Shown piece by piece: positions 13,646 to 47,092 of a stretch of DNA of 64,000 nt. Made by a program: the position numbers and the translations under genes. Below the pieces are notes generated by a model. It saw only the letters and a list, made by a program, of their open reading frames with translations, did not search any database and was not told where the DNA came from. The stretch is from an uncultured Oscillospiraceae bacterium (GTDB taxonomy: Bacteria; Bacillota; Clostridia; Oscillospirales; Oscillospiraceae). Within the stretch, counting starts at the first letter, position 1, and each line of letters starts with the position of its first letter. The stretch spans positions 2,629 to 66,628 of the forward strand of contig CAAEUZ010000099.1 of assembly GCA_900759385.1 (NCBI GenBank), in the 5' to 3' direction.

Positions 13646-13654
13646 GCTCTCACC

Positions 13655-14539: not shown

Positions 14540-14549
14540 AAGTCACCTC

Positions 14550-15434: not shown

Positions 15435-15539
15435 TTGGTCAGCTCCTCTCTCAGGGTTTCTTCAAAGAATCGGGCGGCGATGAGCATAGACTGCTCATCG
15501 CCGCCTTGCCGTTTAAACTAGCTTGCGATGCGGATCAGC

Positions 15540-16913: not shown

Positions 16914-17093
16914 TTTCCTCCTTGCATAAATTCCTAAAATACAAATGCCAATACATGGGTCTTTTGGCATCACTCTTAAGACAAGTATATAGATTTCCCA
17001 CCCGATAACAAGCCAGTTCTTGCGCAACTTTTTATAAATATTGCTCTCGCCATGTTTTTGATGTAAAATGCCCTATTTGACGGCATCTGACTT

Positions 17094-18119: not shown

Positions 18120-18122
18120 GCC

Positions 18123-19034: not shown

Positions 19035-19123
19035 TATCGTCTATTTCTTTTCGCGTGAGCTGCGTATACAATACCAGATGCCGGGAGTGACCCGGGTTTA
19101 ATGCTGTTAAAGGAGCGATTTTC

Positions 19124-20143: not shown

Positions 20144-20254
20144 TCGTCATATAACAACAGACAAAGAGGAATGTCCCGGCGGCATTCCTCTATAATTAAG
20201 CCGTTTGCAGCGGCGCAGATTTATCCAAGCCATTTGATTTAGGGGGATAAGAAT

Positions 20255-31160: not shown

Positions 31161-31469
31161 ATGAAAGAAAAACTGATTAATCTGACAAAAACAATATTTT
31201 CATATGTCACCGCAGCACTGATGGCAATATTTGTGCTTATCCTTGCTGCATATATTGTCGCACTTATAATAGGCGGGGACACGGGAATAGCTATAGACCA
31301 TTTCTTTTCAGCCAGCGTTTTGCCGATTATGTATATTGTTAGCGTCGTTACTTCGTTTGTTGGTATTCTCAACATGTACCTGCGCGGGAAGAAGGCGTTT
31401 ACGATGGAATCAGGTACCGGCAAAAACAATAAAAAAGACGAAAACAAGACAAAGGAGACGGAAAAATGA
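31161..31469 (+). CDS. Small 2-TM membrane protein with Lys-rich tail (paralogue of 44518-44793); candidate accessory subunit of the DctM-like permease
   Basis: GAGGTG RBS and overlap with the downstream ATG. Shares the ..GIL/V.MYLRG.KA.. motif with the second small protein. Confidence 0.5.
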   Translation: MKEKLINLTKTIFSYVTAALMAIFVLILAAYIVALIIGGDTGIAIDHFFSASVLPIMYIVSVVTSFVGILNMYLRGKKAFTMESGTGKNNKKDENKTKETEK

Positions 31470-32662: not shown

Positions 32663-32711
32663 TCAAGAGAAATAAGAGTTATCATCAATGCCGAAGAAAG
32701 GAGCCCGGATC

Positions 32712-33893
32712 ATGGAACTCGACCATCTGAAAAAGTTAGGCTTTGGGACCCTGCACCTGCCGATACTTGACCCAAAGGATCAGTCATCATTCGACTATGC
32801 CGCGCTCAACAGGGAAATAGATATGTTCCTGGATCACGGCTTTACTTATTTTGATACTTCGTACATTTATCATGACCGCAAGTCTGAGATAGCGCTGCGG
32901 GAATCTCTTGTAAAGAGGCATCCGAGGGATTCGTACATACTTTCGGACAAACTGCCGGTAAAGTTCATGAACAAGAAAGAAGATATTGAGAGTATCTTCA
33001 ATGAACAGCTGGGGAAGTGCGGAGTAGATCATTTTGATTATTACTTGTTGCACAGCATCAATTCCAACGCATACGACAATATCAATGAATGGGGCGCCTT
33101 TGACTTCCTGCTCAAGAAGAAATCGGAAGGCTTTTTCAGGGAACTGGGTGTTTCGTTGCATGACAGGCCTGAGTTTTTGGAGAGGGTTTTGCGGGAACAT
33201 CCTGAGATAGATTTTGTCGTTCTGCAGCTGAACTTTGTAGACTGGGACAATAAAATGATTAACTCCAGGGAAATACACCGTATTGCCCGCAAATATGACA
33301 AGCCAATCGTTGTAATGCAGCCGTGCAAAGGGGGGACCCTGCTCAATAACCTTCCGGAAGAAGCAGTTCGGCTGATGAAGGAATATGCACCGGAAGCAAG
33401 CATCGCATCCTGGGCACTTCGTTTCGCTGCAAGCCAGGAAGGTGTGCGCGTTGTTTTGAGCAGTTATCCTGAACCGTGGATGCTCGAAGAAAACATTTCA
33501 ACGATGGAGAATTTCAAACCTCTTAATGAGGATGAATACAGAATCCTTGACAGAGTCAGCGAAATAATCCGGGAAAACACGGCAATACCTTGCAGCGGCT
33601 GCAAGTACTGTGTCTTGGAATGCCCGAAGCATATACCTATAGATGAATATTTTGCGCTTTACAACGATGCTGTGCGCAATGCAAAAAGCACCTATGACAG
33701 CCCGTTCCAGTCAAGCTCGGACATTTATTACATGAATATTTCTATGAACCATGGAAAGGCGGGAGACTGCATTGGCTGCCGTAGGTGCGAAAGAACCTGT
33801 CCGCAGGGACTGAAAATCACAGACTACCTGAAGCTGGTTTCTGCGAGATTTGACAATTTTGACTTAAACAGTGCCCTCAAGCCCAAAGAGTGA
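32712..33893 (+). CDS. Aldo/keto reductase fused to a C-terminal 2x[4Fe-4S] ferredoxin-like domain
   Basis: AKR barrel (..YFDTSYIYHDRKSE..) followed by CSGCKYCVLECP and CIGCRRCERTCP motifs. The start was moved to the ATG at 32712, which has an AAAGGAG RBS. Confidence 0.75.
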   Translation: MELDHLKKLGFGTLHLPILDPKDQSSFDYAALNREIDMFLDHGFTYFDTSYIYHDRKSEIALRESLVKRHPRDSYILSDKLPVKFMNKKEDIESIFNEQLGKCGVDHFDYYLLHSINSNAYDNINEWGAFDFLLKKKSEGFFRELGVSLHDRPEFLERVLREHPEIDFVVLQLNFVDWDNKMINSREIHRIARKYDKPIVVMQPCKGGTLLNNLPEEAVRLMKEYAPEASIASWALRFAASQEGVRVVLSSYPEPWMLEENISTMENFKPLNEDEYRILDRVSEIIRENTAIPCSGCKYCVLECPKHIPIDEYFALYNDAVRNAKSTYDSPFQSSSDIYYMNISMNHGKAGDCIGCRRCERTCPQGLKITDYLKLVSARFDNFDLNSALKPKE

Positions 33894-33902: not shown

Positions 33903-34292
33903 ATGCTAAAGGTTGATAAGCGAACGGAATTAGAGGACTTTTCAGATGTTCTTTCCGCCTTCGCGGCGCTTGGGTTCAAAGATGTTGACTTTGGATCAGA
34001 GTTTGAGACGATGTATAAAGACTACCATTGGGTCCTTATGCCGCATGCCGCCGCTGTAACAAGGCTGTATGCCATACCGCCTGAAAACGAACTGCTCAAA
34101 CGCCCTTGGGACAGTTGGTATTTCCTGAACGGTGCTCCGACGCACCATGTGCACCTGGCCTGGAAGCCGGATGACAACTGGATACCGTGGATACAGAAAG
34201 GGCATACGCCGGAATGTCCGGATGAGCTGACGGACATTCAGTGGTTCTGGTATGCGCCGACGTCAATGATACCATCTATGCTGATGAAATAA
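33903..34292 (+). CDS. Hypothetical protein (129 aa, Trp/His-rich), unknown function
   Basis: ORF in the operon with a plausible start. No family recognised. Confidence 0.4.
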   Translation: MLKVDKRTELEDFSDVLSAFAALGFKDVDFGSEFETMYKDYHWVLMPHAAAVTRLYAIPPENELLKRPWDSWYFLNGAPTHHVHLAWKPDDNWIPWIQKGHTPECPDELTDIQWFWYAPTSMIPSMLMK

Positions 34293-34308: not shown

Positions 34309-35586
34309 ATGGAAAAGACCCTGAAAAAGAGCGGTAAATATGCATGGCTGATACTTTTTTTCCTCGCATTGAGCTCATACGCCGCCATAGGTACGGTTTC
34401 AACGTCCTTTTCTAACAACCTTCCGTATCTCATGGACGAACTGGGGATAACAAATGCGCAGAGTTCGATGCTGCTGAGCATTAAGACTGCGGCACAGGTT
34501 ATAACTATGCTCCTTTGCATTCCGATACTTCAGAAGATATCGGCCCGCATAATGATTACAATCGGTCTGCTTGTAACCGCGATAGGTTGTTTTATTTTCA
34601 CTTTTGCCACCAGCTATTCCACTTGCTGTGTCGCAGTGTTTCTGCTCGGCGTGAGTTATGGCTGGTCCGGAATGACCACCTTGAGTACCATTGCGCGAAA
34701 TTGGTTCGTGAAGCATCGCGCCTTGTCTCTCGGTATACTGACGGCGGCAACCGGTGTGGCTGGTACGATCAATCCGCAGGTTATACTCTTCCTCATAAGG
34801 ACCGGCGGCATTAACCTCAACTTCACTGTAACAGGGATCTTCTTTGTCGTCTGCGGCGTGCTCATTTTCCTCTTCGTCCGCGACCAGCCCCAAGATCTTG
34901 GCTATATGCCCCTCGGCGCGGAGAACGTCTCTGCCGCTGCAGTCGAAGGCGATGATGTGCAGCTTGAAGAAAAGTCAAAGTATGCCCCGACCATACTCTG
35001 CCATGTGCTTATGCTTATATTTATTTGCTGCCTTGGCGGATTCAACTATGCGGCGTGGTCTCACTTTGCCCAGCTATATGATGCCGCAGGATGGAGCGAT
35101 ACAGATGTTGCAAACCTTATGAGCATAGCTTCGTTCCTGCTCATTATAACCAAGATAGCCTTCGGACTTATATCTGATAAATTCTCAGCGCAGAAAACTG
35201 CCTGGATATTCTTTGGATGCTGCTTCATATCCATGCTTATGAGCTGGCAGCTGGCCGGGGTGAAGAATTACTTCCTGCAGATACTCAATTTCGCTATCTA
35301 TTCTATTGGCGGCGTGCTTGGAACTACGGGTATATCGGTTTATGCCATAGATATGTCCAATCGGAAAACTTACAAGACCATCAATTCGATATATGTACCG
35401 GCTTACAGCGTTGGCGGCATGATTGTCAGCCCCTTCATGGGGGAAATCGCGGATATGACCGGCGGATATGGTCCTGGATATGCTATACTGGCCGTACTTT
35501 GCGTAGTCGGTTACATTTGTACAATGATTGCATATAAGCTCGCTGAGCACAACAGAAAGAAGCTTGACGCAGCGCAAAAAGCTTGA
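34309..35586 (+). CDS. MFS transporter (oxalate/formate antiporter-like organic-anion family)
   Basis: Twelve TM helices in a 6+6 arrangement with a central cytoplasmic loop. Confidence 0.8.
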   Translation: MEKTLKKSGKYAWLILFFLALSSYAAIGTVSTSFSNNLPYLMDELGITNAQSSMLLSIKTAAQVITMLLCIPILQKISARIMITIGLLVTAIGCFIFTFATSYSTCCVAVFLLGVSYGWSGMTTLSTIARNWFVKHRALSLGILTAATGVAGTINPQVILFLIRTGGINLNFTVTGIFFVVCGVLIFLFVRDQPQDLGYMPLGAENVSAAAVEGDDVQLEEKSKYAPTILCHVLMLIFICCLGGFNYAAWSHFAQLYDAAGWSDTDVANLMSIASFLLIITKIAFGLISDKFSAQKTAWIFFGCCFISMLMSWQLAGVKNYFLQILNFAIYSIGGVLGTTGISVYAIDMSNRKTYKTINSIYVPAYSVGGMIVSPFMGEIADMTGGYGPGYAILAVLCVVGYICTMIAYKLAEHNRKKLDAAQKA

Positions 35587-35661
35587 TGCATCCAATACGC
35601 CTCAACGAATCATAGAATATATAAAAAATAATATACGTCGGATCATTTGCAAAACTGTGTA

Positions 35662-35708
35662 ATGTCCGGGCCCTGAAGCGAAAAGCTGGGGCCCGGACAT
35701 TTTGCTTT
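35662..35708 (+). terminator. Intrinsic terminator after the MFS gene
   Basis: ATGTCCGGGCCC...GGGCCCGGACAT followed by TTTGCTTT. Confidence 0.6.
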
Positions 35709-35926
35709 CTGACCGCGGCTGTGTGCAGCGCAAGCACATCACCGCGCTTTCTGCTTGTTGCAATATGACTTAATCAACTTAAAATTAATGTTGACAAATA
35801 ATAAAGGATATTTTAATATATAATCAAAGTTTTATTAGCGGCTGCACGGCACATAGATCCATACGCACAGCTGTGGCTGCAAGGTAGTTGTGCGGACTGG
35901 AAAACATGAATCAAAGGAGAATACCC

Positions 35927-38062
35927 ATGGACAACAGGGAATTGGACAGTCTCTTCAGTCCGATAGGCGTGGCCGTTTATGGTGCCTCCAGCAACCCTAA
36001 CAAGCTTGGGGGGAGGCCTGTCCGCAATCTGCTGGAGCAGGGGTATCCACATGGCATTTATCCCATAAATCCTAATTACGCCGAAATCCAGGGCCTTCGC
36101 TGTTATGCGCGGGTTCAGGACATCGGCAAGCGTGTGGATGCTGCTGTAATTATGGTGCGGGCGGAGGACATCCCGGCGGCGGTGGAGGACTGCTGCGCTG
36201 CAGGAGTAAAGTTGGGAATTATCCTGTCTTCTGGATTCGGTGAGCTCGGTGAAGAGGGCAAGAAGGCTCAGAGGCAGGTTGCTGCGTATGCCGCCGGACA
36301 TGGTATGAGACTCATAGGCCCGAACTGCCTTGGTATCGTCAACTTTACGAACAACACCCCTCTGACCTTTTCAGTTGCGCTGCTGGATAAAGCGCGCAGC
36401 GGCGGGAACATGGCCATAGTTTCCCAGAGCGGGGCTTTTGGCTCACATTTGTACGGGCTGGCACGGACCATGGGCATATCATTGTCTTACTGGTTTACTA
36501 CGGGCAACGAGGCGGACCTCCAGTTCAACGACTGTCTCAACTGGCTGGCGGACAAGCCGGAAGTAAAGTCTGTGGCGGGGTACATGGAGGACGCGCGCGA
36601 CGGGCAGAAGCTGATTGCCGCACTGGACGCATGCCGCGAGCACAGCAAGCCGGTCACACTCCTGAAGGTAGGCAAAACTGAACTGGGTTCAAGGGCGGCG
36701 TCATCGCATACCGGCGCTCTGGCGGGGAACGCAGCGGTATATCGTGCGGTATTCAGGCAGAAGAACGTAATACAGGCCGAGGATGTTTATGAATTGCTGG
36801 ACTTTTCCAGCTTTTGTGCCAACACCAAGCCCGTTGGGCAGGCGCGCGTGGCAATTGTAACAGTGTCAGGCGGTGTCGGAGTGCTGCATGCAGACAAGTG
36901 CGACGAGTGCGGCATACCCGTTGCCGTGCTCTCGGATGAAACAAAGAAGAAAATACGCTCCGCCATACCGGCCTTCGGCTCCGCCGAAAACCCAATAGAC
37001 GTTACGGCGCAGACAATTACTAAAGAAAACGGCCTGGTCGCCCCTCTGTCATATTGCATGGAAGACGAAAACGTCGACGTAGTAATGATGTACCTCGCAA
37101 TGTACAAGTCTGCCGGAGAGCGCATTGCAAAGCAATTTATAGAAGTGGTAGAAAAGTATGACAAGCCGCTAATTGTCACCTGGATGGCCGGCCCCGAAGA
37201 CGCCAAAAACCTCATGCGTGAGCACGGCATACTGGTGTTTGATGAGCCGGTGCGAGCGGTAAAAAGCTTGGGTGCATACCACGCATACATCAGGGGCCAA
37301 GAGCGCTATCGCTCGCGTGCGCGAAGCGGTGAAATTGAATTACCGGAGCTTAACGCGGCAGACATAGCCGGGCTCAAGGCATGGCTGAAAGAGCGCAGCA
37401 AAGGAACAAAGGGTCTCTCAGAATATGAATCCCGCCGTGTTCTGGGGACGTTTGGTTTTCCGCTGGTTCCCGGTGGTCTGGCGGAAACCGCCGAAGATGC
37501 AGTACGTATAGCGGGGGAAATAGGCTATCCCGTCGTTATGAAGATCGACTCCCCGCATGTGCTCCACAAGTCCGATGTAGGCGGTGTGCTGCTTAATGTG
37601 ATGGATGAGAACGATGTCAGGGCCGGCTTTGAAGCTATTATGTCCAATGTGGCAAAAGCGCTTGGTGAGCTCCCGCCGGTAAACGGAGTCCTTGTGGAAA
37701 AAATGGAAAAGGCGGAGACAGAGCTCCTGATCGGCATGCAGACCGACCCGCTTTTCGGACCTACAATAGCCTTTGGCGTTGGGGGCATTTTTGTTGAGGT
37801 GCTCAAGGAAATATCCCTGCGTGTGGCGCCGTTGAGCGAGGACGACGCATACGACATGCTGTCAGAGCTTAAAGGTGCCAAGCTGCTGGACGGCGCCCGA
37901 GGGAAACCGCCGTGCGACAAAAAATCGGTGTGCCGCGCCATATTGTGCCTCTCGCGCATGGCCACCGAGCTTAGCGGTATTGTCAGGGAAGTCGATATTA
38001 ATCCGCTTTTTGCCTTCACAGACGGCGTGCGAGCCGGCGATGCGCTCGTGGTGCTGGAATAA
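35927..38062 (+). CDS. Acyl-CoA synthetase (ADP-forming), fused alpha-beta type (NDP-forming acetate/acyl-CoA ligase)
   Basis: CoA-binding N-domain (IGVAVYGAS...), a succinyl-CoA-synthetase-like flavodoxin domain and a C-terminal ATP-grasp domain. AAGGAGA RBS at the ATG at 35927. Confidence 0.8.
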   Translation: MDNRELDSLFSPIGVAVYGASSNPNKLGGRPVRNLLEQGYPHGIYPINPNYAEIQGLRCYARVQDIGKRVDAAVIMVRAEDIPAAVEDCCAAGVKLGIILSSGFGELGEEGKKAQRQVAAYAAGHGMRLIGPNCLGIVNFTNNTPLTFSVALLDKARSGGNMAIVSQSGAFGSHLYGLARTMGISLSYWFTTGNEADLQFNDCLNWLADKPEVKSVAGYMEDARDGQKLIAALDACREHSKPVTLLKVGKTELGSRAASSHTGALAGNAAVYRAVFRQKNVIQAEDVYELLDFSSFCANTKPVGQARVAIVTVSGGVGVLHADKCDECGIPVAVLSDETKKKIRSAIPAFGSAENPIDVTAQTITKENGLVAPLSYCMEDENVDVVMMYLAMYKSAGERIAKQFIEVVEKYDKPLIVTWMAGPEDAKNLMREHGILVFDEPVRAVKSLGAYHAYIRGQERYRSRARSGEIELPELNAADIAGLKAWLKERSKGTKGLSEYESRRVLGTFGFPLVPGGLAETAEDAVRIAGEIGYPVVMKIDSPHVLHKSDVGGVLLNVMDENDVRAGFEAIMSNVAKALGELPPVNGVLVEKMEKAETELLIGMQTDPLFGPTIAFGVGGIFVEVLKEISLRVAPLSEDDAYDMLSELKGAKLLDGARGKPPCDKKSVCRAILCLSRMATELSGIVREVDINPLFAFTDGVRAGDALVVLE

Positions 38063-38082
38063 TAAACCCAAAAGAAATATTA

Positions 38083-38125
38083 AGTCCCTGCTGCGGCTTG
38101 CCGCAGCAGGGACCTGCTTTTTCAG
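38083..38125. terminator. Bidirectional terminator between the convergent acyl-CoA synthetase and iclR genes
   Basis: AGTCCCTGCTGCGG-cttg-CCGCAGCAGGGAC followed by CTGCTTTTT. Confidence 0.6.
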
Positions 38126-38130
38126 CTACG

Positions 38131-38919
38131 TTAACGCAGTATGGTCCGATGGTATCCCAAATCAAGCGAAATCTGCATGGCAGTGCGCTTGACTTCTTCT
38201 ATCAGCAATTCGCCTTCGCTCTCAAAGCGTTCCAGCGGGCACCTTGATATACTTATGGAGCAGATAGTCTCATTCTTGGCATCGAGCACCGGCGCGGAAA
38301 TACAGACGTTTCCGGGGACAAACTCCTCAATGTCTGTGGCGTAACCCTGCTCGCGCACCATCTCCAGCTCATCCATGAGCTTTTCCGGGGAGGTGATGGT
38401 CTTGCTCGTAAATGAGTAAAGCTCAGAAGAGGAAATATACTCACGCGCGGTTTCCTTGCTCAGTGCAGCTAAGAGCACTTTTCCGGATGCGCTCAGATGT
38501 GCGGGGAGCAGGTAGCCGTTGACATGCCTAGGAACTAGGCTGCGATCTTTTGAAGCTATCACCAAAGCGGTCATGGGCGGCTTGAAGACGCAAATGTTTA
38601 TCCGCATGTGGAACTTCTCAAAAAGCGCGATAGCATAGTCCTCGGTGTATATAAGGAACGGATAAAGACGAGGGTAATTGTGTCCAGTGACATAAAACCG
38701 GTAGCCTATGTGATATCTCCCGCTTTCGGGGTCTTTTTCCAGACACTCCTGAGCCACAAGAGAATTCACTATAGAGTAGGCGGTGGGCTTGCTCACCTTT
38801 AGCTCCTCTGCGATTTCATTTACAGTCATGGAAACGCAGGAGGTCGCTATTGATGTCAAAAACTCCAGCGTTCTTGACAGAGTCTGCTGTTCAGACGCGC
38901 CTTTTTCTTTTGCCGTCAT
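38131..38919 (-). CDS. IclR-family transcriptional regulator
   Basis: N-terminal winged HTH and a C-terminal IclR effector domain. Divergent from the kor operon. Confidence 0.85.
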   Translation of the reverse strand: MTAKEKGASEQQTLSRTLEFLTSIATSCVSMTVNEIAEELKVSKPTAYSIVNSLVAQECLEKDPESGRYHIGYRFYVTGHNYPRLYPFLIYTEDYAIALFEKFHMRINICVFKPPMTALVIASKDRSLVPRHVNGYLLPAHLSASGKVLLAALSKETAREYISSSELYSFTSKTITSPEKLMDELEMVREQGYATDIEEFVPGNVCISAPVLDAKNETICSISISRCPLERFESEGELLIEEVKRTAMQISLDLGYHRTILR

Positions 38920-39163
38920 GATATACCTCCTTGCCGCGAAGTCAAACAGTGTTTATTTCCAGTACAGCTTATAGCAAAAGCTAATGTTTGTCAAGCTGAC
39001 GGAGCACTGATTTTCACAAACTATTAAATTATTTTTAATCACCATTAAATAGGCAAGCGATGAATATGGCAATTTGCCGGTCAAAAGCGGCCGACATCGC
39101 GGCGGGGCTTGGGCGATATGACCAAATGCAAAAACTAATTATTATATAATTTACTGAAATATA

Positions 39164-39179
39164 AAAATAACGTTATTTT
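39164..39179. promoter_or_regulatory. 16-bp perfect palindrome AAAATAACGTTATTTT in the AT-rich iclR/kor divergent promoter region (candidate IclR operator)
   Basis: Perfect dyad read directly from the sequence. It sits in a roughly 420-bp AT-rich intergenic region. Confidence 0.4.
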
Positions 39180-39360
39180 ATATTTAAAAATACTGGATAT
39201 AGAGTTAAGTATATGTTATATTTAATATGCAATATTTGCTTGGAGAGTAGCTTCACACCACTGAGGGCGTTGCAGCCGCCCGGAGTTTGACGTTATGGCG
39301 CACTGCTGACAGCCGTGCAGGCAGAGCATACCGGCAAATATGAAGCAGGAGGTTTTATCA

Positions 39361-39552
39361 ATGAAAGATATAAAAATAAACGAAAAATGGTGCAAAGGAT
39401 GCGGTATCTGTGCCGATTTTTGTCCCAAGCATGTGTTTGATCACATACGCTTGGGGCTCAGACCGGTGCCGGCAAGAATTGCCGACTGCATTGGCTGTGG
39501 CATGTGTGAAGTGCGTTGCCCTGATTTCGCCATAACCCTTATCAAGGAATGA
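39361..39552 (+). CDS. korD: 2-oxoacid:ferredoxin oxidoreductase delta subunit (2x[4Fe-4S] ferredoxin)
   Basis: CKGCGICADFCP and CIGCGMCEVRCP motifs. AGGAGG RBS, and the start was moved to the ATG at 39361. Confidence 0.8.
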   Translation: MKDIKINEKWCKGCGICADFCPKHVFDHIRLGLRPVPARIADCIGCGMCEVRCPDFAITLIKE

Positions 39553-39555
39553 GAG

Positions 39556-40713
39556 GTGTTCTCTTTGAAAGAAGGAAAAGTTTGCTTTGATATGGGAAAT
39601 CGTGCCATAACAGAGGGGGCCATAGCGGCTGGTGCACGATTCTATGCCGGCTATCCCATAACACCGTCCACAGAAATTGCAGAAATGTCGTCGGTACGCC
39701 TGCCACAGGTGGGCGGGACTTATATACAAATGGAGGATGAGATAGGCTCAATTGCAGCTGTTATCGGCGCATCAGCTGCCGGGTTTAAGTCCTATACTGC
39801 CACCAGCGGACCGGGCTTTTCTCTGATGCAGGAAAATATAGGCGTTGCGGTAAATGCTGAGCTCCCATGTGTCATCATAGACGTGCAGCGCTCCGGCCCC
39901 AGCACCGGTCTCGCTACAAAGGCCGCACAGGGAGATATTATGCAGGCCCGCTTCGGCACGCATGGTGACAGCGGACGCATAGCGCTGGCGCCGGCAAGTG
40001 TGCAGGAGTGCTATGACTTCACCATCGAGGCCTTTAATCTGGCGGAAAAATACCGCACGCCGGTGGTACTGCTGGCCGACAAATACATTGCCCACCTGCG
40101 CGAGAGCTTTACTATGTGGCATCCCGGGGAGGGGCAGCTCACCGAGCGCCGCCGACCCTCCTGTGCTTCGGAGGAGTACCGGCCTCACGGCTTTGAAAAG
40201 TACGCCGACGGCGTGGCGGAGCTGGCGGATTTCGGAGACGAGAAATACCTCACCCGCTTTACGTCATCTACCCATGACTCAATCGGCGAGCCATGCGGCA
40301 AAGCGGAAAACACAATTAAGTTCCTCAACCACTACGTGGACAAGATTGAAAACAACATCGATGACATAGTCCGAACCCGCTCATTTGAGATGGATGACGC
40401 CGAATACGTGATAATCGCATACGGCTGCTCGGTCCGCTCGGCGCTCGGCGCCATGGAACTCGGCCGCGAAGCGGGAAAGAAGATCGGCGTGCTGCAGATG
40501 ATTACGGTGTGGCCGTTTCCAGAGAAACTCATAGCTGAGACCTGCGCCAAGGCAAAAGCGGTGGTCGTGCCAGAGCTTAATCTGGGACAGTATGTGCGCG
40601 AGGTAAGACGCGCAAACCGCAGCTCGACTCCGGTCATACCGGTAAACCGTATAGATACGGAGATAATTACCCCGCAGCAGATTCTGGCCGCATTTGAGGA
40701 GGCAAGCAAATGA
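39556..40713 (+). CDS. korA: 2-oxoacid:ferredoxin oxidoreductase alpha subunit
   Basis: KorA/VorA/PorA-like, with ..GYPITPSTEI.. near the N-terminus. Probable GTG start. Overlaps korB. Confidence 0.85.
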   Translation: MFSLKEGKVCFDMGNRAITEGAIAAGARFYAGYPITPSTEIAEMSSVRLPQVGGTYIQMEDEIGSIAAVIGASAAGFKSYTATSGPGFSLMQENIGVAVNAELPCVIIDVQRSGPSTGLATKAAQGDIMQARFGTHGDSGRIALAPASVQECYDFTIEAFNLAEKYRTPVVLLADKYIAHLRESFTMWHPGEGQLTERRRPSCASEEYRPHGFEKYADGVAELADFGDEKYLTRFTSSTHDSIGEPCGKAENTIKFLNHYVDKIENNIDDIVRTRSFEMDDAEYVIIAYGCSVRSALGAMELGREAGKKIGVLQMITVWPFPEKLIAETCAKAKAVVVPELNLGQYVREVRRANRSSTPVIPVNRIDTEIITPQQILAAFEEASK

Positions 40714-41528
40714 GCTATCTTGACTATCTGAACACCAGACGCTTTCCCCACAAAATGTGCTCCGGATGCGGCCACGGAATGGTTATGGGCGCGGTCGCTA
40801 GAGCGCTGGAGGAGCTGGACATTGATCCCCACAAGCTTGTGGCTGTCTCCGGTATAGGCTGTGCCTCGCGGCTTGACGGCTATCTGAACTGCAACTCGTT
40901 CCACGGCACCCACGGCCGCTCACTGGCGTTCGCAACAGGGATCAAAACCGCAAAACCGGAACTCACCGTAATTTGTGCCTGCGGTGACGGTGACGGTGCA
41001 ACAATAGGCGGCAACCACCTTATACACGCGGCCAGACGCAATGTGGATATAACTGTAATTCTCATGAACAACTGCAATTATGGCACTACCGGCGGCCAGT
41101 ACTCGTCCACCACACCCGAGGGCAGCATAACTGCCACCAGTGTATACGGCCACATAGAGCGTGGGCTGGACGTCTGCTCGCTTGCCATAGCTGCGGGAGC
41201 CACTTATGTGGCGCGGGCGACCTGCGACAATGTGCTGCAGGCCAAGACATATATAGTGGAAGGCGTCCGGCACAAAGGCTTTTCTCTTATAGAAGTCCTC
41301 TCACCGTGCCCAACACACTTTGGGAAAAACAACTCTTATGCCAGGCCCTCAGATATGATACGGGCACTGAAAGAGGTGACCTATCCTGTGTCTAGGGCTG
41401 ACAGTATGAGTGATGAGGAGCGGAAGGGAAAGCTGGCGCTTGGACGTCTCGTGTGCGATGATACGCAGCAGGACTACAGCACCAAATACGACGCCCTGCG
41501 CAACTTGGCGTGCAAGGAGGAGAATTAA
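40710..41528 (+). CDS. korB: 2-oxoacid:ferredoxin oxidoreductase beta subunit (TPP-binding)
   Basis: CSGCGHG near the N-terminus and a GDGD..N TPP motif (CACGDGDGATIGGNH...NNCNYGTTGGQ). Confidence 0.85.
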   Translation: MSYLDYLNTRRFPHKMCSGCGHGMVMGAVARALEELDIDPHKLVAVSGIGCASRLDGYLNCNSFHGTHGRSLAFATGIKTAKPELTVICACGDGDGATIGGNHLIHAARRNVDITVILMNNCNYGTTGGQYSSTTPEGSITATSVYGHIERGLDVCSLAIAAGATYVARATCDNVLQAKTYIVEGVRHKGFSLIEVLSPCPTHFGKNNSYARPSDMIRALKEVTYPVSRADSMSDEERKGKLALGRLVCDDTQQDYSTKYDALRNLACKEEN

Positions 41529-42077
41529 ATGGCCAAGAAACAAATTATACTTGCAGGCGTCGGAGGCCAGGGTCTGGTATCGGCTGGAGGGATGCTGGCT
41601 GAAGCTGCAGCCATATATGAACGCAATGAGGCGCTTATGGGCTGCGCTTACGGTTCGGAGGCGCGTGGTACGTTCACCAAGGCAGAGGTGATAATTGACG
41701 ACAAACGTATCTTTTTCCCGGAGGTACAGCAGCCGGACATCGTGGCGGTACTTCACCAGACGGCATATGACCGCTATGCGGGCAAACTGCCCGAAACTGC
41801 ACTGCTGGTTTACGACAGTGATGTTATCACCCCTTCCGTCGAGCAGGAGAACCAGCTCGGGGTGCCCATGTCGGCGCTTGCGGACGCAGCCGGAGCGCCC
41901 GGAAGGACCAATATGGTCGTGCTCGGCATGATTTCGGCTATGGACGGAATAGTCGGACGTGAGCCGCTTGAGAAGCTGATTACCAAAAAGTTTGAATCCA
42001 AACCGAAACTGGTTGAAATGAATATCAGCGCACTCAACGCCGGCTATAAATACGCTGCAAAGGCAAGCGAACAATAG
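41529..42077 (+). CDS. korC: 2-oxoacid:ferredoxin oxidoreductase gamma subunit
   Basis: Begins ILAGVGGQG. 182 aa, typical of the gamma subunit. Confidence 0.8.
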   Translation: MAKKQIILAGVGGQGLVSAGGMLAEAAAIYERNEALMGCAYGSEARGTFTKAEVIIDDKRIFFPEVQQPDIVAVLHQTAYDRYAGKLPETALLVYDSDVITPSVEQENQLGVPMSALADAAGAPGRTNMVVLGMISAMDGIVGREPLEKLITKKFESKPKLVEMNISALNAGYKYAAKASEQ

Positions 42078-42112
42078 GATATACAGGAGAGACTTGAGAA
42101 AGGAGACAGAAG

Positions 42113-43108
42113 ATGGGGAAGATACTCGTTTGCGGCAGCCTGGAAAGCGAGACGCTGGAATATCTCCGCGCCAACGCCGACGTAACGGTCGCGCCCGATA
42201 ACAGCAAGGAGACGGTAATAGACCTGCTCCGGCAGGGTATGGAGGCCATAATACTCCGTGGGTATCACATAACGGATGAGATTATTGAGTCTGCACCGTC
42301 TCTGAAGGTTATCGCCAGGGTTGCGGCTGGGTACAACGAAATAAATTTGGACCTGTGTGCGAAGAAGAAAATATTTGTCTGCAACTCTCCCGGAGGCAAT
42401 GCAAATGCCACAGCCGAGATGACGATAGGCTTCTTCTTCGCTTTGGGCAGGCAGATTATACCCATGCACAACGATTATGTGCGCGGCCGCTTCAATACTC
42501 CGGGCAAGACCGTTCTGGACCAGAAAAAAGCCTACGGATATATGGGTCATGAGCTGTGCGGCGCTACCTGCGGCGTCCTTGGATACGGTCGTATAGGCAA
42601 GCTTGTGGTGAAAAAGGCTATCGGCCTTGATATGAGGGTGCTGGTATACGACCCGTTCCTGTTCGGAAAAACGGAACTACCCGAGGGCGCTGCGTGGGGG
42701 GAGACGCTGGAAGGCATGCTGCCGGAATGTGACTTTATATCCCTGAACCTGCCGGCCACCAAGGACACAAAGGGAATGATAAACAGGCGAACACTCAGCC
42801 TCATGAAGCCTACGGCCTATCTTGTTAATGAGGCTCGCGGCGACATTATAGTGGAAGAGGACATGGCCTGGGCTCTGAACAATGACATAATAGCCGGTGC
42901 GGCACTTGACTGCAACGAGCCGGAGCCGCTCCCGTTCGGACATGTTTACAGGGCCTGCAAAAACGTTATTCTTACCCCGCATATAGGCGGATACACAGCG
43001 GAGGCTCACGTCAATTTGGAAATGACGTCAGCAAAGAGCGCCGTGGAGGCTCTTAGGGGTGAAATACCATCTAACTGTGTGAACCTTAAAGAGCTTGGCC
43101 TCGCGTGA
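42113..43108 (+). CDS. D-isomer-specific 2-hydroxyacid dehydrogenase (NAD-dependent)
   Basis: GVLGYGRIGK Rossmann motif and catalytic Arg/Glu/His pattern (..NEARGDI..TPHIGGYT..). AAGGAGA RBS. Confidence 0.85.
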   Translation: MGKILVCGSLESETLEYLRANADVTVAPDNSKETVIDLLRQGMEAIILRGYHITDEIIESAPSLKVIARVAAGYNEINLDLCAKKKIFVCNSPGGNANATAEMTIGFFFALGRQIIPMHNDYVRGRFNTPGKTVLDQKKAYGYMGHELCGATCGVLGYGRIGKLVVKKAIGLDMRVLVYDPFLFGKTELPEGAAWGETLEGMLPECDFISLNLPATKDTKGMINRRTLSLMKPTAYLVNEARGDIIVEEDMAWALNNDIIAGAALDCNEPEPLPFGHVYRACKNVILTPHIGGYTAEAHVNLEMTSAKSAVEALRGEIPSNCVNLKELGLA

Positions 43109-43132
43109 AGAAAACAGAAAGGGGGAAATAAG

Positions 43133-44488
43133 ATGCCGTTTGAAGTCTGGTATTTTGTGGCTATAATAGCCGTCTGCCTGGTCTGGTTTGTCATTGTGCG
43201 TCGTCCCATGTACGAGGCGCTTGCAATATCTTTCATCGTATGCCTGGCCATATCCGGTACCTGGTCGGAGACTATTGCGTTTATGGTTGACGGCGCCAGT
43301 CAGTCCATACTGTACACTATCCTGTGCTTCCTGATTTTTGCCCAGATACTCAAGGAAACCGGAGTTATATCCAAGATAGTAAATATTATTATAGCTCTTG
43401 TCGGACGTCTGTCCGGCGGCGCGGGGATCGTCTGCCTTGCAGCGTCAACCTTTATGGCGTTTGTAGCCGGTACCGGACCGGGCAACGTGACCGCGACAGG
43501 CAGCATCACCATACCGCTGATGAAGAGAGCTGGCTACAAGCCGGAGTTTGCAGCCTCTGTAGGTGCAGCATGCGGCGGACTGGGTCCCATTGTCCCGCCC
43601 AGTTCCAGCATAGCAGTGTCTTTTGCCTGCCTGGTAAGTGCAGCCGGCGAAGGTGCATATACATCCTCACAGCTCTGGACGGTGTCCTACGGCATTGCTC
43701 TTTGGTTCATACTGCACCGTTTCATACAGATTATGATTATGTGTAAAATCTATAAGGTCAAGCCTCTGGACAAGTCAGAGCTGCCCGACCTGAAGACTGC
43801 ATGGAAAGAGGGCTGGAGTGCCTGCATGCTGATTCTCGTTGTCATGGTACCGTTCCTTATAGACAACACCTGCGACGCCCTGCTTGTACGCCTGCTGGGT
43901 GAAACGGCGAGAGGAAACCTGTCCAGTGCCCTGCTGGCCATGACCCCGGCTTACGCCGGCGCCTATGCGCTTATAGTTGGCCGCAAGAGCTTCAAGGTCA
44001 GCGCCAAAAACCTCGGGAACATGGTCCAGAAGACGGTCAAGAGTCTGGCGCCCATGGCAATGCTGCTCTGGATGGCCTACTCCATAGGAGCCTTGCTTGA
44101 CTACATAGATTGCGGCACGCCCATATGTGAGTGGATTATGAGCTTTAACCTCTCGTATTTCGGTGCTACAATATTTATAATTGTCCTGGTGCTTATACTC
44201 ACCATGTCTCTCTCGCCCAACGCGGTCATGCCGCTCTTTGGGCCCATGATAATCACAATATTCATGAACTACGGTGTAAATCCGCTTATTCCGGCAGCCA
44301 TGCTCATACCGCTTTTCCACGGACTTGGACAGGTTACAATCCCGTATGCGACTGTCTTGTATCCAGCAATGGGACTGGCGGACTCAGACTTCGGCAAAAC
44401 CGTGGTGCAAATGGCGTGGTGGGTGCTTGGCCACTGCATTGTATGTGCACTGCTTTTGTTAGGCATACTTCCGGTGCTGTTTATGTGA
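43133..44488 (+). CDS. DctM-like (TRAP large-permease family) secondary transporter, copy 2
   Basis: LVGRLSGGAGIVCLAASTFMAFVAGTGPGNVTATGSITIPLMKRAGY...GPIVPPS. Paralogue of copy 1. Confidence 0.75.
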   Translation: MPFEVWYFVAIIAVCLVWFVIVRRPMYEALAISFIVCLAISGTWSETIAFMVDGASQSILYTILCFLIFAQILKETGVISKIVNIIIALVGRLSGGAGIVCLAASTFMAFVAGTGPGNVTATGSITIPLMKRAGYKPEFAASVGAACGGLGPIVPPSSSIAVSFACLVSAAGEGAYTSSQLWTVSYGIALWFILHRFIQIMIMCKIYKVKPLDKSELPDLKTAWKEGWSACMLILVVMVPFLIDNTCDALLVRLLGETARGNLSSALLAMTPAYAGAYALIVGRKSFKVSAKNLGNMVQKTVKSLAPMAMLLWMAYSIGALLDYIDCGTPICEWIMSFNLSYFGATIFIIVLVLILTMSLSPNAVMPLFGPMIITIFMNYGVNPLIPAAMLIPLFHGLGQVTIPYATVLYPAMGLADSDFGKTVVQMAWWVLGHCIVCALLLLGILPVLFM

Positions 44489-44517
44489 CGGCTTGAGAAA
44501 GGTTATGAGGTGAAAAT

Positions 44518-44793
44518 ATGAAAGCCAAAATAGCAAAGCTCTGCAATGTCGTTTTCGGTTACGGGATGCTAATAGCCATGTTTGTTGCGTTTATACTCTT
44601 TGTGGGCTTCGTGGCAGCTTTTTTTATAGGAGAGGACGCTGCGGCAGCGCTGACCACCTTCCTGTACAAAACGCTCTTGCCCAAGACATATGTGCTCGCT
44701 GTAATTGCCAGCTTTTTCGGCATAGTAGGAATGTACCTGCGCGGAGAGAAGGCGATGCTTATGAGCAAAAAGCCGAAGAACAAGGCAAAGTGA
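44518..44793 (+). CDS. Small 2-TM membrane protein with Lys-rich tail (paralogue of 31161-31469)
   Basis: GAGGTG RBS and the ..GIVGMYLRGEKA.. motif shared with the first small protein. Confidence 0.5.
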   Translation: MKAKIAKLCNVVFGYGMLIAMFVAFILFVGFVAAFFIGEDAAAALTTFLYKTLLPKTYVLAVIASFFGIVGMYLRGEKAMLMSKKPKNKAK

Positions 44794-44844
44794 CAGGCGC
44801 CATCCGGCCTCAAAACGAGGCCGGACGTTTAAGGAGAGAATAGC

Positions 44845-46206
44845 ATGCCAACTCAGCTTTGGAATTTTCTAATATTAATAGGCATAGTTGTCATAGTCTT
44901 TGCGATTTTCAAAAGGCCGCTCTATGAAGCAATGCTGCTGTCCTTTGTCTGCCTGCTGGCATCAACGGGAATGTGGAACGAAGCGCCGCATTACCTCCTC
45001 AGCTCTGCCCAGAACTCACTTCTTTTCACCATTGTAATGTTCCTCGTGTTCTCTTCGATCCTTAAAGAGACCGGTGTTATACAGGACTGCATAGATATCA
45101 TAATGGCGCTGGTTGGAAGGATACCGGGAGGGGCGGGCGTTGTAGCAATAGTGTCCAGCGCGTTCATGGGCGCAATGAGTGGTTCGGGTCCGGGCAATGT
45201 GGCAGCAACTGGCAGTGTGACCATACCTCTGATGAAGAAGGCGGGATATCCGGCGGAATTCGCAGCCGGCATAGCGATGTCCGGCAGCTGCCTCGGGCCG
45301 GTTATACCACCGTCGGCCACAATTATAGCAGCTTTTTCCTGCCTGAGTGTAGTGGACGGCCTCGAGAGCTTCCAGTTTTCGAGCTTCTGGATGGTGATGT
45401 ACAGCGTCTCACTGGTATTTATTCTGCACAGGCTCATTCAGTTCTACATCATGTATGCAGCGCTGGGAATAAAACGTGCGGACGCCAGCGAGCTGCCCGG
45501 CCTCAAGGAATCCTGGAGACGGGGCTGGCCCAGCTTCCTGCTTGTGGTTGTAATCATGCTGCCCTTTGCGCTCGACAACTTCTTCGGTGACTGGTTCGCC
45601 AGCGTGATTGGCGATACTGCGGCGGACTATCTGTCAGACAGCGTGCTTGTTTTTACACCTGCCATAGCCTCGGCATACAGCCTGCTGGTAAGCCACAAGC
45701 GCCGCCGCCGTTCACTGGGAGAATTGGCAAAGGCCGTGTCGTCCGATATGAAGTCTATAGTTTCCATGTGCATGGTGCTGTTCTTTGCATATGCCATAAG
45801 CGAACTGCTGACGGACTGCGGAACCATCACTGCCGCCGAAGAGTTCCTGGACTCGCTCAACCTAAGCTTCGGTGGGATGACATTTGTGTTGCTGGTGGTA
45901 ATGACCATACTCGGTATGTTTATGAGCGGTACCTCCCTCATCCCTCTGCTCGGACCGGTCTATGTATCCATACTGTCCGGGTATGGGGCAGATCCCATCG
46001 TCATAGCAGCCATAATACCGGTGCTGTTTGTCTCGCTGGGCCAGATGACGCCGCCATTCGCGCTGGCCATGATGGCCGCTATGGGTATAGCACAGTCCGA
46101 TTTCCGCAAGACGTCTGTACACGCTATAATCTGGAGTGTTGTCCAGTTCATACTTGTATATCTGATAATCATAGGGGTTATACCAATTTCCATACCTCAG
46201 TGGTAA
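44845..46206 (+). CDS. DctM-like (TRAP large-permease family) secondary transporter, copy 3
   Basis: LVGRIPGGAGVVAIVSSAFMGAMSGSGPGNVAATGSVTIPLMKKAGY...GPVIPPS. Confidence 0.75.
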   Translation: MPTQLWNFLILIGIVVIVFAIFKRPLYEAMLLSFVCLLASTGMWNEAPHYLLSSAQNSLLFTIVMFLVFSSILKETGVIQDCIDIIMALVGRIPGGAGVVAIVSSAFMGAMSGSGPGNVAATGSVTIPLMKKAGYPAEFAAGIAMSGSCLGPVIPPSATIIAAFSCLSVVDGLESFQFSSFWMVMYSVSLVFILHRLIQFYIMYAALGIKRADASELPGLKESWRRGWPSFLLVVVIMLPFALDNFFGDWFASVIGDTAADYLSDSVLVFTPAIASAYSLLVSHKRRRRSLGELAKAVSSDMKSIVSMCMVLFFAYAISELLTDCGTITAAEEFLDSLNLSFGGMTFVLLVVMTILGMFMSGTSLIPLLGPVYVSILSGYGADPIVIAAIIPVLFVSLGQMTPPFALAMMAAMGIAQSDFRKTSVHAIIWSVVQFILVYLIIIGVIPISIPQW

Positions 46207-46222
46207 GCGGAATTAATAAACC

Positions 46223-46273
46223 AAACAGCAGGGGGGCCGACTCCGGACAGACACGGGCTTCCTGCTGTTTTTA
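46223..46273 (+). terminator. Terminator-like hairpin at the right edge of the low-GC island
   Basis: AAACAGCAGG...CCTGCTGTTT with a long loop followed by TT. The loop is unusually long, so strength is uncertain. Confidence 0.4.
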
Positions 46274-46390
46274 TCTGTTCTCTCTGGCACGGGATCAGAG
46301 TCATCTGCGGAGCTTACATTTACCTTAAATAACATTCGGATGCGTTTATTTGCGGGGATATATCTGCTATAATGTGCCCGGTGATGAAAA

Positions 46391-47092
46391 ATGGAGGGCA
46401 ACAGGCACAGGCGTATATTAATAGTTGACGACGAGGCGGCCATCTGTGAGCTGCTGGAGTCCGTGCTGGCCGGGGCGGGGTATGAGGCCGTGCGCTCTGA
46501 GCACAGCTGCGCGGCGGCAATCGGGGCCGCGCGAGAGTGGGACCCGGAGCTGGCCATCCTGGACGTGATGCTCCCGGACGGCGACGGGTTTGCGCTGCTG
46601 CGCACCCTGCGCGGCATATCGGACATACCGGTGCTCTTCCTCACGGCGCGCGGCGAGGACGCGGACCGGCTGACTGGGCTCGGCCTGGGTGCGGACGACT
46701 ATGTGGTCAAGCCGTTCCTGCCGGCCGAGCTGCTGCTGAGGGTGGGCATAATCCTGCGCCGGTATTACAGGGAGGAAGCTCCGGCGGTGCGCCTGGCCGC
46801 CTGCGAGGTGGACTTCAGCCGCGCCGAGGTAGTGCGCCGCGACGGGCATCGTCTGCCCCTGACGGCCAAGGAGTTCGGCATACTGCGCGCCCTGGCCGAG
46901 CGCGCGGGGCGCATCGTGACCATAGACCAGCTCTGCGAGGCCGCCTGGGGCGACAACCCCTTCGGCTATGAGAACTCGCTCATGGCGCACATACGCCGTA
47001 TCCGGGAGAAGATAGAGGCCGACCCCTCTCACCCCGTGAGCCTGGTGACGGTAAAGGGCCTGGGTTACAAGCTGATAACGGAGGGCCGCTGA
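46391..47092 (+). CDS. OmpR-family response regulator
   Basis: Receiver domain (ILIVDDE..D..LPDGDG..K) and a winged-helix output domain (..LVTVKGLGYKL). Confidence 0.9.
   Translation: MEGNRHRRILIVDDEAAICELLESVLAGAGYEAVRSEHSCAAAIGAAREWDPELAILDVMLPDGDGFALLRTLRGISDIPVLFLTARGEDADRLTGLGLGADDYVVKPFLPAELLLRVGIILRRYYREEAPAVRLAACEVDFSRAEVVRRDGHRLPLTAKEFGILRALAERAGRIVTIDQLCEAAWGDNPFGYENSLMAHIRRIREKIEADPSHPVSLVTVKGLGYKLITEGR

Follow-up and report, generated by a model that had tools for sequence, protein, structure and literature searches.

We analysed a 64,000-nucleotide stretch of DNA from an uncultured Oscillospiraceae bacterium (the window; positions count from its first letter), in which an earlier reading made from the letters alone had proposed an energy-yielding module for 2-hydroxy and 2-oxo acids under IclR control between positions 35927 and 46206. 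A block of ten genes lies there, all intact at these coordinates by the listing of open reading frames (ORFs) and by Pfam and NCBIfam searches. The order is an ADP-forming acyl-CoA synthetase (ACD), an iclR gene on the opposite strand, a ferredoxin, KorA, KorB and KorC of a 2-oxoacid:ferredoxin oxidoreductase (OFOR), a 2-hydroxyacid dehydrogenase (2-HADH), a DctM-like permease, a protein of about 90 amino acids (aa), and a second DctM-like permease. The two boundaries of that sequence-only reading are the exact ends of a conserved block. We consider it probable that the block was acquired horizontally and serves, as a self-contained cassette, the catabolism of a carboxylic acid with a 2-hydroxy or 2-oxo group. 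Judged by its sequence, every enzyme in it comes from a known family, and the key enzyme, the KOR, has what appears to be an unusual substrate pocket. The genes and transcription signals are as follows.

35927-38062, plus strand: fused (alpha-beta) ADP-forming acyl-CoA synthetase (ACD), 711 aa, monocistronic, recognized by Pfam
38131-38919, minus strand: IclR-family transcription regulator, 262 aa (Pfam HTH_IclR and IclR_C)
39340-39552, plus strand: delta subunit, a small 2x[4Fe-4S] ferredoxin of 63-70 aa (start at 39361 according to gene callers)
39556 (or 39565)-40713, plus strand: KorA, OFOR alpha subunit, 382-385 aa (POR_N, PFOR_II)
40710-41528, plus strand: KorB, OFOR beta subunit with thiamine pyrophosphate (TPP) and the proximal [4Fe-4S] cluster (TPP_enzyme_C)
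41529-42077, plus strand: KorC, OFOR gamma subunit (POR domain)
42113-43108, plus strand: NAD-type D-isomer-specific 2-HADH, 331 aa (Pfam)
43133-44488, plus strand: DctM-like permease 1, 451 aa (DctM domain)
44518-44793, plus strand: small membrane protein, 91 aa, of no family
44845-46206, plus strand: DctM-like permease 2, 453 aa (DctM domain)
35791-35819, plus strand: sigma-70-type ACD promoter, TTGACA-17-TAATAT, followed by a leader of about 100 nt
38084-38113: bidirectional intrinsic terminator between the convergent ACD and iclR genes, with a GC-rich stem of 13-15 bp and T-tracts on both strands
38920-39339: AT-rich divergent control region between iclR and the ferredoxin gene
46224-46272, plus strand: intrinsic terminator closing the operon, a hairpin of -28.8 kcal/mol (z = -3.9) followed by UUUUUAU

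Most of the gene inventory had been read correctly before. The iclR gene with its divergent AT-rich control region (G+C content, GC, of 0.41 at 39000-39499) does face a plus-strand operon; the ferredoxin and KorA/B/C constitute a four-subunit OFOR by ORFs, Pfam and NCBIfam; Pfam domains and catalytic residues confirm the D-2-hydroxyacid dehydrogenase in the operon; and the fused ACD upstream proved to be a conserved member of the cassette in all versions. Three DctM-like permeases had been counted in the operon. There are only two, since the ORF at 44518-44793 encodes the 91-aa membrane protein without a family; the third DctM-like gene of the window lies at 29792-31150, 13 kb upstream and outside the conserved block.

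The identical ten-gene order was found in four genomic contexts with unrelated flanks, at 74-88% protein identity. These are the window, L006/L007, L008 and L009, the latter being contigs with 2-HADH orthologues of 84%, 79% and 76% identity. Beside the other versions stand a sortase, an SBP_bac_3/GerE pair, or an alpha/beta hydrolase. Across the contexts, identity amounts to 77-88% for KorA, 77-83% for KorB and 76-84% for 2-HADH. Because the ten-gene block recurs in four unrelated contexts, the ACD belongs to the cassette. The module has a GC of 0.528 and a third-position GC (GC3) of about 0.62, compared with 0.63-0.64 and about 0.86 in the host flanks, and in the other three hosts the GC of the module equals that of the flanks. 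The low GC of the module in a 64%-GC genome therefore argues for horizontal acquisition here. Taken at the sequence level, the data point to a cassette that moves as a unit and was horizontally acquired in this genome. In the public assembly collection, 359 blocks (metagenome assemblies among those inspected) hold a KorB identical to this one, with the window's own flanks in every place inspected. The collection of species-representative genomes held a version, 76% identical, in one metagenome-assembled genome (MAG) alone ('uncultured Oscillospiraceae bacterium'). Carriage on plasmids was discarded, as no relative above 40% identity was present in PLSDB.

The OFOR is, by its sequence signatures, apparently of KOR type and not of IOR or VOR type. 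KorA passed the model NF006412 ('2-oxoacid:acceptor oxidoreductase subunit alpha') with 499 bits against a cut-off of 411, scored 66 bits with the IOR_alpha model, and fell below the cut-off for VorB; its best solved relative is the alpha subunit of Pyrococcus furiosus 2-keto acid:ferredoxin oxidoreductase (1yd7, 345 bits). The KorA motif YAGYPITPSTE and the residues Arg109 and Thr114 in RSGPSTG align with Thr256a, Arg344a and Thr349a of StOFOR1; in StOFOR, the Thr of YPITP and the Arg and Thr residues bind the substrate carboxylate (PMC5020499). KorB contains the TPP motif GDGDG...NN (GDGDGATIGGNH...MNN) and four cysteines, Cys17, Cys20, Cys51 and Cys200, that are invariant in the alignment. 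It gave 112 bits with TPP_enzyme_C and remained below the cut-off of the OorB equivalog (265 bits vs 364). KorC matched PF01558 (119.6 bits) and stayed below the cut-off of NF006323 (127.6 bits vs 235). The delta subunit matched Fer4 families through two CxxCxxCxxxCP motifs, CKGCGICADFCP and CIGCGMCEVRCP, and its best NCBIfam match was OGOR_delta (E = 2e-13; 50 bits vs a cut-off of 125). A delta-type ferredoxin gene precedes KorA in every related cluster.

KorB Thr126, by alignment a residue of the substrate pocket, sits in the invariant motif NYGTTGGQYSSTTP and corresponds to Leu123b of StOFOR1 and Asn996 of DaPFOR, a position where mutation alters substrate preference (PMC5020499). Of the 150 closest representatives at 50% identity, 120 carry Met there and 26 Leu, and not one has Thr; Thr was seen in 19 of the 120 closest 90%-clusters, against 99 with Met and 3 with Gln. 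The 19 Thr-type KorB and one Met-type KorB form a single neighbour-joining clade with moderate bootstrap support (192/300, and 171/300 without the motif columns), within which the cassette clade was recovered in 200/200 replicates. KorA, too, has changes specific to the clade, most notably a reversal of charge at residue 173 (in the 382-aa form): all 17 Thr-clade sequences have Lys (LLADK), whereas Glu (LLxDE) stands there in 93 of 104 sequences from the rest of the family. The pocket does not have the full 2-oxoglutarate-type set of residues, as Arg54 is kept at the position of K49b in StOFOR1, but Thr126 replaces Leu and Ser replaces Leu at the position of D468a'. The Leu-to-Ser change in KorA relative to the solved 2-oxoglutarate enzymes was dropped as a clue to the substrate; it is general to the whole Firmicute family and not diagnostic. 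The smaller, polar Thr pocket may leave room for a longer or hydroxylated homologue of 2-oxoglutarate.

Homologues of KorA fall into three tiers: identities of 74-99% mark the cassette clade, 64-68% a small group, and 57-63% a very large Firmicute family that is mostly annotated as 2-oxoglutarate or 2-oxoacid oxidoreductase. The named homologues above about 55% identity are all bacterial (Firmicutes/Bacillota, Clostridiales), most sequences carrying no name. The architecture had been called archaeal rather than bacterial, which is overstated in view of these homologues and of a 2026 study that reported, for Peptostreptococcales, clusters joining an OFOR to an ADP-forming acyl-CoA ligase and assayed a Clostridioides difficile ligase of this kind (PMC13285125).

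The ACD contains CoA_binding_2 (residues 15-138), Succ_CoA_lig (160-294), Ligase_CoA_2 (308-459) and ATP-grasp_5 (491-710) domains. All five subdomains of the ACD superfamily are present in one chain in the order 1-2-5-4-3, and the full length aligns to 8wzu, the 4-hydroxybutyrate-CoA ligase [ADP-forming] of Nitrosopumilus, which is also the best solved relative (370 bits). The phosphorylatable swinging-loop histidine of the cassette ACD, His261 in ASSHTGALAGN (GSRAASSHTGALAGN), is kept in the 52%-identical homologue of the related cluster L013; a swinging-loop His256 has been described for Nmar_0206 (PMC11494057).

The 2-HADH has both domains of its family, PF00389 (2-Hacid_dh) and PF02826 (2-Hacid_dh_C). 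Arg242, Glu271 and His290 align with the catalytic Arg, Glu and His of Pyrococcus glyoxylate reductase chains and are invariant in the clade; the aligned Pyrococcus residues are Arg241, Glu270 and His288, which we take to be the triad of the Pyrococcus horikoshii enzyme. The NAD-type fingerprint, GxGxxG with Asp180, is likewise invariant. No NCBIfam cut-off was reached for PGDH (228 bits vs 454), glyoxylate reductase (202 vs 455) or D-lactate dehydrogenase (86 vs 356). The nearest enzymes are PGDH, glyoxylate reductase and McyI, and the D-lactate dehydrogenases are far off. Eleven 90%-clusters were found at 74-100% identity, followed by an abrupt fall to 40% or less. Since no relative lies between 74% and 40%, this 2-HADH clade is seen only with the cassette. 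The PGDH/glyoxylate type of the enzyme would disfavour aryl- or branched-chain lactates as substrates and would favour a polar or dicarboxylic acid.

This result bears on whether the genes might form an oxidative branch for aromatic or branched-chain 2-hydroxy or 2-oxo acids, such as aryl-lactates and 2-hydroxyisocaproate, in a Stickland-type fermentation. Clusters of OFOR and ADP-forming ligase working on arylacetates exist in C. difficile (PMC13285125), and Met-type relatives of the KOR adjoin aminotransferases and a Pta/kinase pair. The C. difficile clusters, however, use IOR- and VOR-type OFORs (clusters 2 and 3 of the sequence similarity network in PMC13285125), whereas a KOR-type enzyme is present here; the 2-HADH is far from the D-lactate dehydrogenase type (86 bits vs about 227 for PGDH); and the carriers are of DctM type. 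We therefore regard such a branch as improbable. The aryl- and branched-chain lactates named as candidates by the sequence-only reading are a poor fit to a 2-HADH resembling PGDH and glyoxylate reductase and to a KOR-type OFOR.

Permeases 1 and 2 are 44% identical to each other. They matched the DctM domain with 158.7 and 194.9 bits, and TIGR00786 with 84.8 and 135.7 bits, below its cut-off of 268. Genes for a DctP or TAXI binding protein or for DctQ are present in none of the four cassette versions, which sets the permeases apart from TRAP systems. The 91-aa protein encoded between them belongs to no Pfam or NCBIfam family and is 62-84% conserved in every version of the cassette. A paralogue of 36% identity that has the motif MYLRGxKA in common with it is encoded at 31161-31469 directly after the DctM-like gene at 29792-31150. 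The 91-aa protein is thus a probable auxiliary subunit of the DctM-like permeases, and a DctM-like protein with a membrane protein of about 90-100 aa may constitute an undescribed, two-component type of carrier that is independent of a binding protein.

In the alignment of the four versions, the -35 and -10 elements of the ACD promoter are kept throughout. A hairpin with a T-tract at about 35665-35705 separates this promoter from the upstream MFS gene. The operon promoter has its -35 element at 39194 and an extended -10 element, TGtTATATT, ending at 39222, followed by a 5' untranslated region (UTR) of about 120-140 nt. For iclR, the candidate -35 element is found at about 38988-38995, where the invariant TTTGTCAA supplies it as its reverse complement. 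Aligned control regions contain invariant TTGTCAA and ATGTTAT blocks, and both promoters are conserved. Within the operon, spacing between genes ranges from a 4-nt overlap up to 51 nt. Inverted repeats at 39157-39185 and the palindrome ATTAAAttattTTTAAT at 39023-39039, AT-rich and partly conserved, are candidate operators; no IclR box can be claimed, because the promoter comparison gave only AT-rich matches of low information. The regulator has both domains of its family (PF09339, 30.6 bits; PF01614, 106 bits), and its best NCBIfam match was BhcR with 121 bits against a cut-off of 350, so that no equivalog was reached. It is 41% identical to the IclR of the related KOR cluster L011. From the position of its gene, the divergent IclR is presumably the local regulator of the operon.

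A riboswitch or leader was also considered and set aside: an Rfam scan of 35400-46600 gave no match at E <= 1, and the GC-rich hairpin in the 5' UTR is common to L006 alone. This element, CTGAGGGCGTTGCAGCCGCCC, lies in 39230-39339 of the window and in 4470-4587 of L006, the version of 84% identity; it is not in the two more distant versions.

The gene neighbourhoods of the closest KOR relatives outside the cassette clade are the following, ferredoxin being abbreviated as Fd.

L013 (Thr-type): TAXI-TRAP carrier, ACD (52% identical), Fd-KorABC (KorA 68%), a homocitrate/isopropylmalate-synthase-like gene and an RraA-type aldolase
L015 (Thr-type): TAXI-TRAP carrier, DASS carrier, ACD, Fd-KorABC
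L011 (Thr-type): IclR (41%), small ORF, two-subunit CoA-transferase, Fd-KorABC, TAXI binding protein; PrpD, PrpF, citrate-lyase-like and aconitase-like genes nearby
L017 (Thr-type): IclR, small ORF, two-subunit CoA-transferase, Fd-KorABC, TAXI binding protein; glutaminase nearby
L016, 1-18834 (Thr-type): CdaR-type regulator, ACD, enoyl-CoA hydratase, CoA-transferase, Fd-KorABC, Na+/alanine symporter; further an aminotransferase, hydantoinase/oxoprolinase A/B, acyl-CoA dehydrogenase and ETF
L019, Lutispora (Met-type): Pta-like enzyme, kinase, sigma-54 activator, Fd-KorABC, aminotransferase, SSF carrier
L018 (Met-type): CoA-transferase, KorABC, aminotransferase, TAXI-TRAP system

The ACD directly precedes Fd-KorABC in L013 and L015, and in other relatives a CoA-transferase or a pair of Pta and kinase takes its place, each functionally equivalent to the ACD in making use of an acyl-CoA. 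The pairing of this type of OFOR with an energy-conserving enzyme that consumes acyl-CoA (ACD, CoA-transferase or Pta/kinase) is the rule, which supports the pathway logic of the sequence-only reading. Genes of the Thr-type clusters include those for carriers of the DASS and TAXI-TRAP kinds and for a glutaminase, an aminotransferase and a CdaR 'diacid' regulator. The gene set of L016 appears sufficient to take a cyclic amide or amino acid to a 2-oxo acid, then to an acyl-CoA, and to dehydrogenate the latter, which would make the route complete; as speculation, a C6 dicarboxylate (2-aminoadipate/2-oxoadipate/glutaryl-CoA) would fit. That membership in the KOR family implies 2-oxoglutarate as substrate was a further idea we tried, and it was weakened by the Met-type relatives adjoining Pta, kinase and aminotransferases. 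At 5500-8400 of L018, Fd, KorA and KorC are called as short fragments beside a DDE transposase, which may reflect decay of the cluster, or assembly or frameshift errors.

These neighbourhoods also bear on a reductive or anabolic use of the genes, in which the ACD would activate an acid with ATP, the KOR would carboxylate it reductively, and the 2-oxo acid would be reduced or used (succinate to 2-oxoglutarate to glutamate), or in which the KOR would be the housekeeping enzyme of a branched tricarboxylic acid (TCA) cycle. OFORs and ACDs are reversible, and solved relatives of the KOR include CO2-fixing 2-oxoglutarate synthases (6n2n, 8ys5). The cassette, though, is compositionally foreign, is found in one MAG only among the species-representative genomes, and brings its own transporters and local regulator; genes for the TCA cycle or glutamate synthesis are not adjacent, and the nearest KOR relatives are all in catabolic clusters. 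A reductive role is accordingly highly improbable. A grouping of the KOR with a reductive TCA branch, named by the sequence-only reading among the things that would refute it, did not emerge: the nearest KOR relatives all stand in transporter- and regulator-linked catabolic clusters rather than in a TCA context.

The proposed pathway runs as follows. The two paralogous DctM-like carriers, each probably with the 91-aa protein and without a binding protein, would move substrate and/or product across the membrane. The NAD-type 2-HADH, as assigned by family and catalytic residues, would interconvert the 2-hydroxy acid and the 2-oxo acid, presumably in the oxidative direction. The four-subunit KOR would decarboxylate the 2-oxo acid to an acyl-CoA and pass the electrons through its own delta ferredoxin subunit, and the ACD, by family and by its linkage in conserved synteny, is predicted to convert acyl-CoA, ADP and Pi into acid, ATP and CoA. 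The divergent IclR, to judge from its position, would regulate the operon locally. As earlier proposed, a 2-hydroxy acid would be turned into a 2-oxo acid, then into acyl-CoA with reduced ferredoxin, and finally into an acid with ATP; families, motifs, operon structure and synteny support this sequence of steps, and the direction of the 2-HADH step is presumed.

A polar or dicarboxylic substrate is most likely. It is favoured by the relatives of the 2-HADH, by the KOR type of the OFOR, and by the related clusters, whose genes lean towards dicarboxylates or amino-dicarboxylates. The leading guess is 2-hydroxyglutarate/2-oxoglutarate (yielding succinate) or a close homologue.

Several findings weigh against the pathway and the substrate guess. 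The ACD lies outside the operon and is transcribed separately from its own promoter. An IclR operator common to both promoters was not found in the four versions by alignment, shared k-mers or inverted repeats. IclR control is therefore presumed for the operon, by gene position, and unsupported for the ACD, with its own promoter and no shared operator found. The ACD reached none of the ligase equivalogs for acetate (467 bits vs 1200), 4-hydroxybutyrate (450 vs 1300) and 3-hydroxypropionate (413 vs 1300). As to the substrate, the label 'KOR' does not fix 2-oxoglutarate, and in the solved structures of 2-oxoglutarate enzymes, 8ys5 and 6n2n, Leu occupies the position of Thr126. Oxidation of 2-hydroxy acids with NAD is endergonic, the E0' of the pair being about -190 mV against -320 mV for NAD, and an Etf-type confurcating partner is not encoded in the cassette. 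The 2-HADH may thus run reductively.

Because NAD-linked oxidation is endergonic and the cassette has no Etf-type partner, the principal rival is a dismutation of 2-oxo acids, which we judge unlikely on balance. An imported 2-oxo acid, or an amino acid transaminated elsewhere, would be split between two fates, one part being oxidised by KOR and ACD with formation of ATP and reduced ferredoxin, and the other serving as an electron sink when the 2-HADH reduces it to the D-2-hydroxy acid; this product would leave through one permease, and the substrate would enter through the other. Established redox potentials favour the step from 2-oxo to 2-hydroxy acid for NAD-type 2-HADHs, the closest characterised relatives of this 2-HADH are reductases (glyoxylate/hydroxypyruvate reductases), the two permeases differ (44% identity), and related Thr-type KOR clusters lack a 2-HADH, evidently starting from a 2-oxo acid or amino acid. 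In every version, however, the 2-HADH gene is embedded, for transcription as well as translation, between KorC and the permeases, a place that would suit a first catabolic step just as well, and its sequence gives no discrimination between the two directions.

The oxidative catabolic cassette remains our preferred reading. Tentatively, and as a possibility rather than an expectation, its unusual parts can be joined: the Thr-pocket KOR subclade would be a new specificity class of OFOR (perhaps for a 2-oxoadipate-like, longer or hydroxylated 2-oxo-dicarboxylate, or for a hydroxylated 2-oxo acid) that resides, together with a new 2-HADH clade and a two-component carrier independent of a binding protein, in a mobile ATP-yielding cassette of gut Oscillospiraceae-like bacteria. 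If true, a hydroxy acid from the host or the diet would be fermented by a route not recognised before.

In the window, the cassette is part of a low-GC island of about 22.5 kb (23900-46400; GC 0.43-0.58) in a host genome with a GC of 0.63-0.67. The island further contains a LysR regulator (25382-26272, minus strand), an Fe-S flavoenzyme resembling OYE, BaiCD and bilirubin reductase (26373-28355, minus strand), two Fe-alcohol dehydrogenases (28607-29758 and 31466-32662), an aldo-keto reductase with a C-terminal 4Fe-4S domain (32688-33893), a 129-aa protein without known function (33903-34292) and a lactate-transporter-like MFS protein (34309-35586). A functional link of the cassette to the upstream Fe-alcohol dehydrogenases, aldo-keto reductase, MFS protein and OYE-type flavoenzyme was rejected, as none of these genes accompanies the cassette elsewhere. 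No integrase or transposase was seen at the island borders. The left GC boundary is straddled by a gene for an 809-aa surface protein (22448-24877, minus strand) with SLH, Big_2, He_PIG and Flg_new_2 domains, whose 5' part (about 23900-24877) has a GC of 0.49-0.56 and whose 3' part has 0.67; this split suggests that the gene is chimeric or that a junction of the island falls within it.

Immediately to the right of the cassette, the segment 46391-50126 has host GC and encodes an OmpR-type response regulator together with a histidine kinase and an SSF-family Na+/solute symporter. These genes are species backbone, since the same flanks occur in L001-L005, and they are not conserved with the cassette elsewhere. 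The host flank at 9691-22299 carries a partial lacto-N-biose/galacto-N-biose pathway, with galactose-1-phosphate uridylyltransferase (9691-11199, minus strand), lacto-N-biose phosphorylase (11263-13434, minus strand), a UDP-glucose-4-epimerase-like gene (19124-20143) and an APH-family kinase (21178-22299); an SLH-anchored 5'-nucleotidase is encoded at 6829-9135. The lacto-N-biose genes fit a gut bacterium that uses mucin or milk glycans.

If the scheme is true, a common lineage of uncultured gut Clostridia gains one ATP per molecule, and low-potential electrons, from an organic acid. Being small, self-contained and transferable, the cassette is a tractable target for heterologous expression. 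The analysis also flags a subclade of enzymes annotated as KOR that probably act on something other than the annotated substrate, a 2-HADH clade to which no characterised enzyme is more than 40% identical, and a DctM-like carrier type with a small membrane subunit in place of DctQ and DctP. More widely, the automatic label '2-oxoglutarate ferredoxin oxidoreductase' in Firmicutes covers a family that is mostly found in diverse catabolic clusters.

Among known systems, the archaeal pairs of OFOR (POR/VOR/IOR/KGOR) and heterotetrameric NDP-forming acyl-CoA synthetase in the peptide fermenters Pyrococcus and Thermococcus share the logic, in which a 2-oxo acid yields acyl-CoA with reduced ferredoxin and the acyl-CoA then yields acid and ATP by substrate-level phosphorylation. 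The ACD of the cassette differs from them as a single fused 711-aa chain, and the cassette is one regulated, mobile bacterial unit with transporters and a 2-HADH front end. The 2-oxoglutarate OFORs, 8ys5 and the Magnetococcus OGOR 6n2n, have the same subunit set, YPITP, Arg, TPP motif and cluster cysteines, with Arg at the position of Lys49b. We take 8ys5, a four-subunit Oor-type enzyme, to be OorDABC of Helicobacter pylori. KorB of the cassette is about 50% identical, by eye, to 8ys5_C and lies below the OorB equivalog cut-off; unlike both solved enzymes, the cassette OFOR has Thr126 for Leu and, at Asp468a', Ser for Leu, in a catabolic context and not one of the TCA or reverse TCA cycle.

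Nmar_0206 of Nitrosopumilus maritimus (8wzu) has the same fused, homodimer-type order 1-2-5-4-3 and the swinging-loop His (PMC11494057). It runs as a synthetase in an autotrophic cycle, whereas the cassette ACD is expected to form ATP. With TRAP (DctPQM) and TAXI-TRAP systems, the permeases share the DctM/ion-transporter superfamily, and related KOR clusters hold genuine TAXI-TRAP systems; the cassette, in contrast, lacks DctP, TAXI and DctQ, stays below the cut-offs of TIGR00786 and TIGR02123, and has a membrane protein of about 90 aa instead.

A KOR-type Thr-pocket enzyme combined with a D-2-HADH and DctM-like carriers without binding protein under IclR was not found in a non-exhaustive literature search. 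A four-subunit (D+E+F+G) OFOR clustered with an enzyme gaining ATP from the acyl-CoA, either Pta/kinase or an ADP-forming ligase, occurs in anaerobic, amino-acid-fermenting Firmicutes, in HpdDEFG/HpdJ/HpdK of Clostridium scatologenes and Cd2 and Cd3a-c of C. difficile (PMC13285125). The ligase-linked OFORs of that study are of IOR and VOR type and act on aryl or branched-chain 2-oxo acids from transamination, whereas the cassette brings together a KOR-type OFOR with a Thr pocket residue, a D-2-HADH, DctM-like carriers and an IclR regulator.

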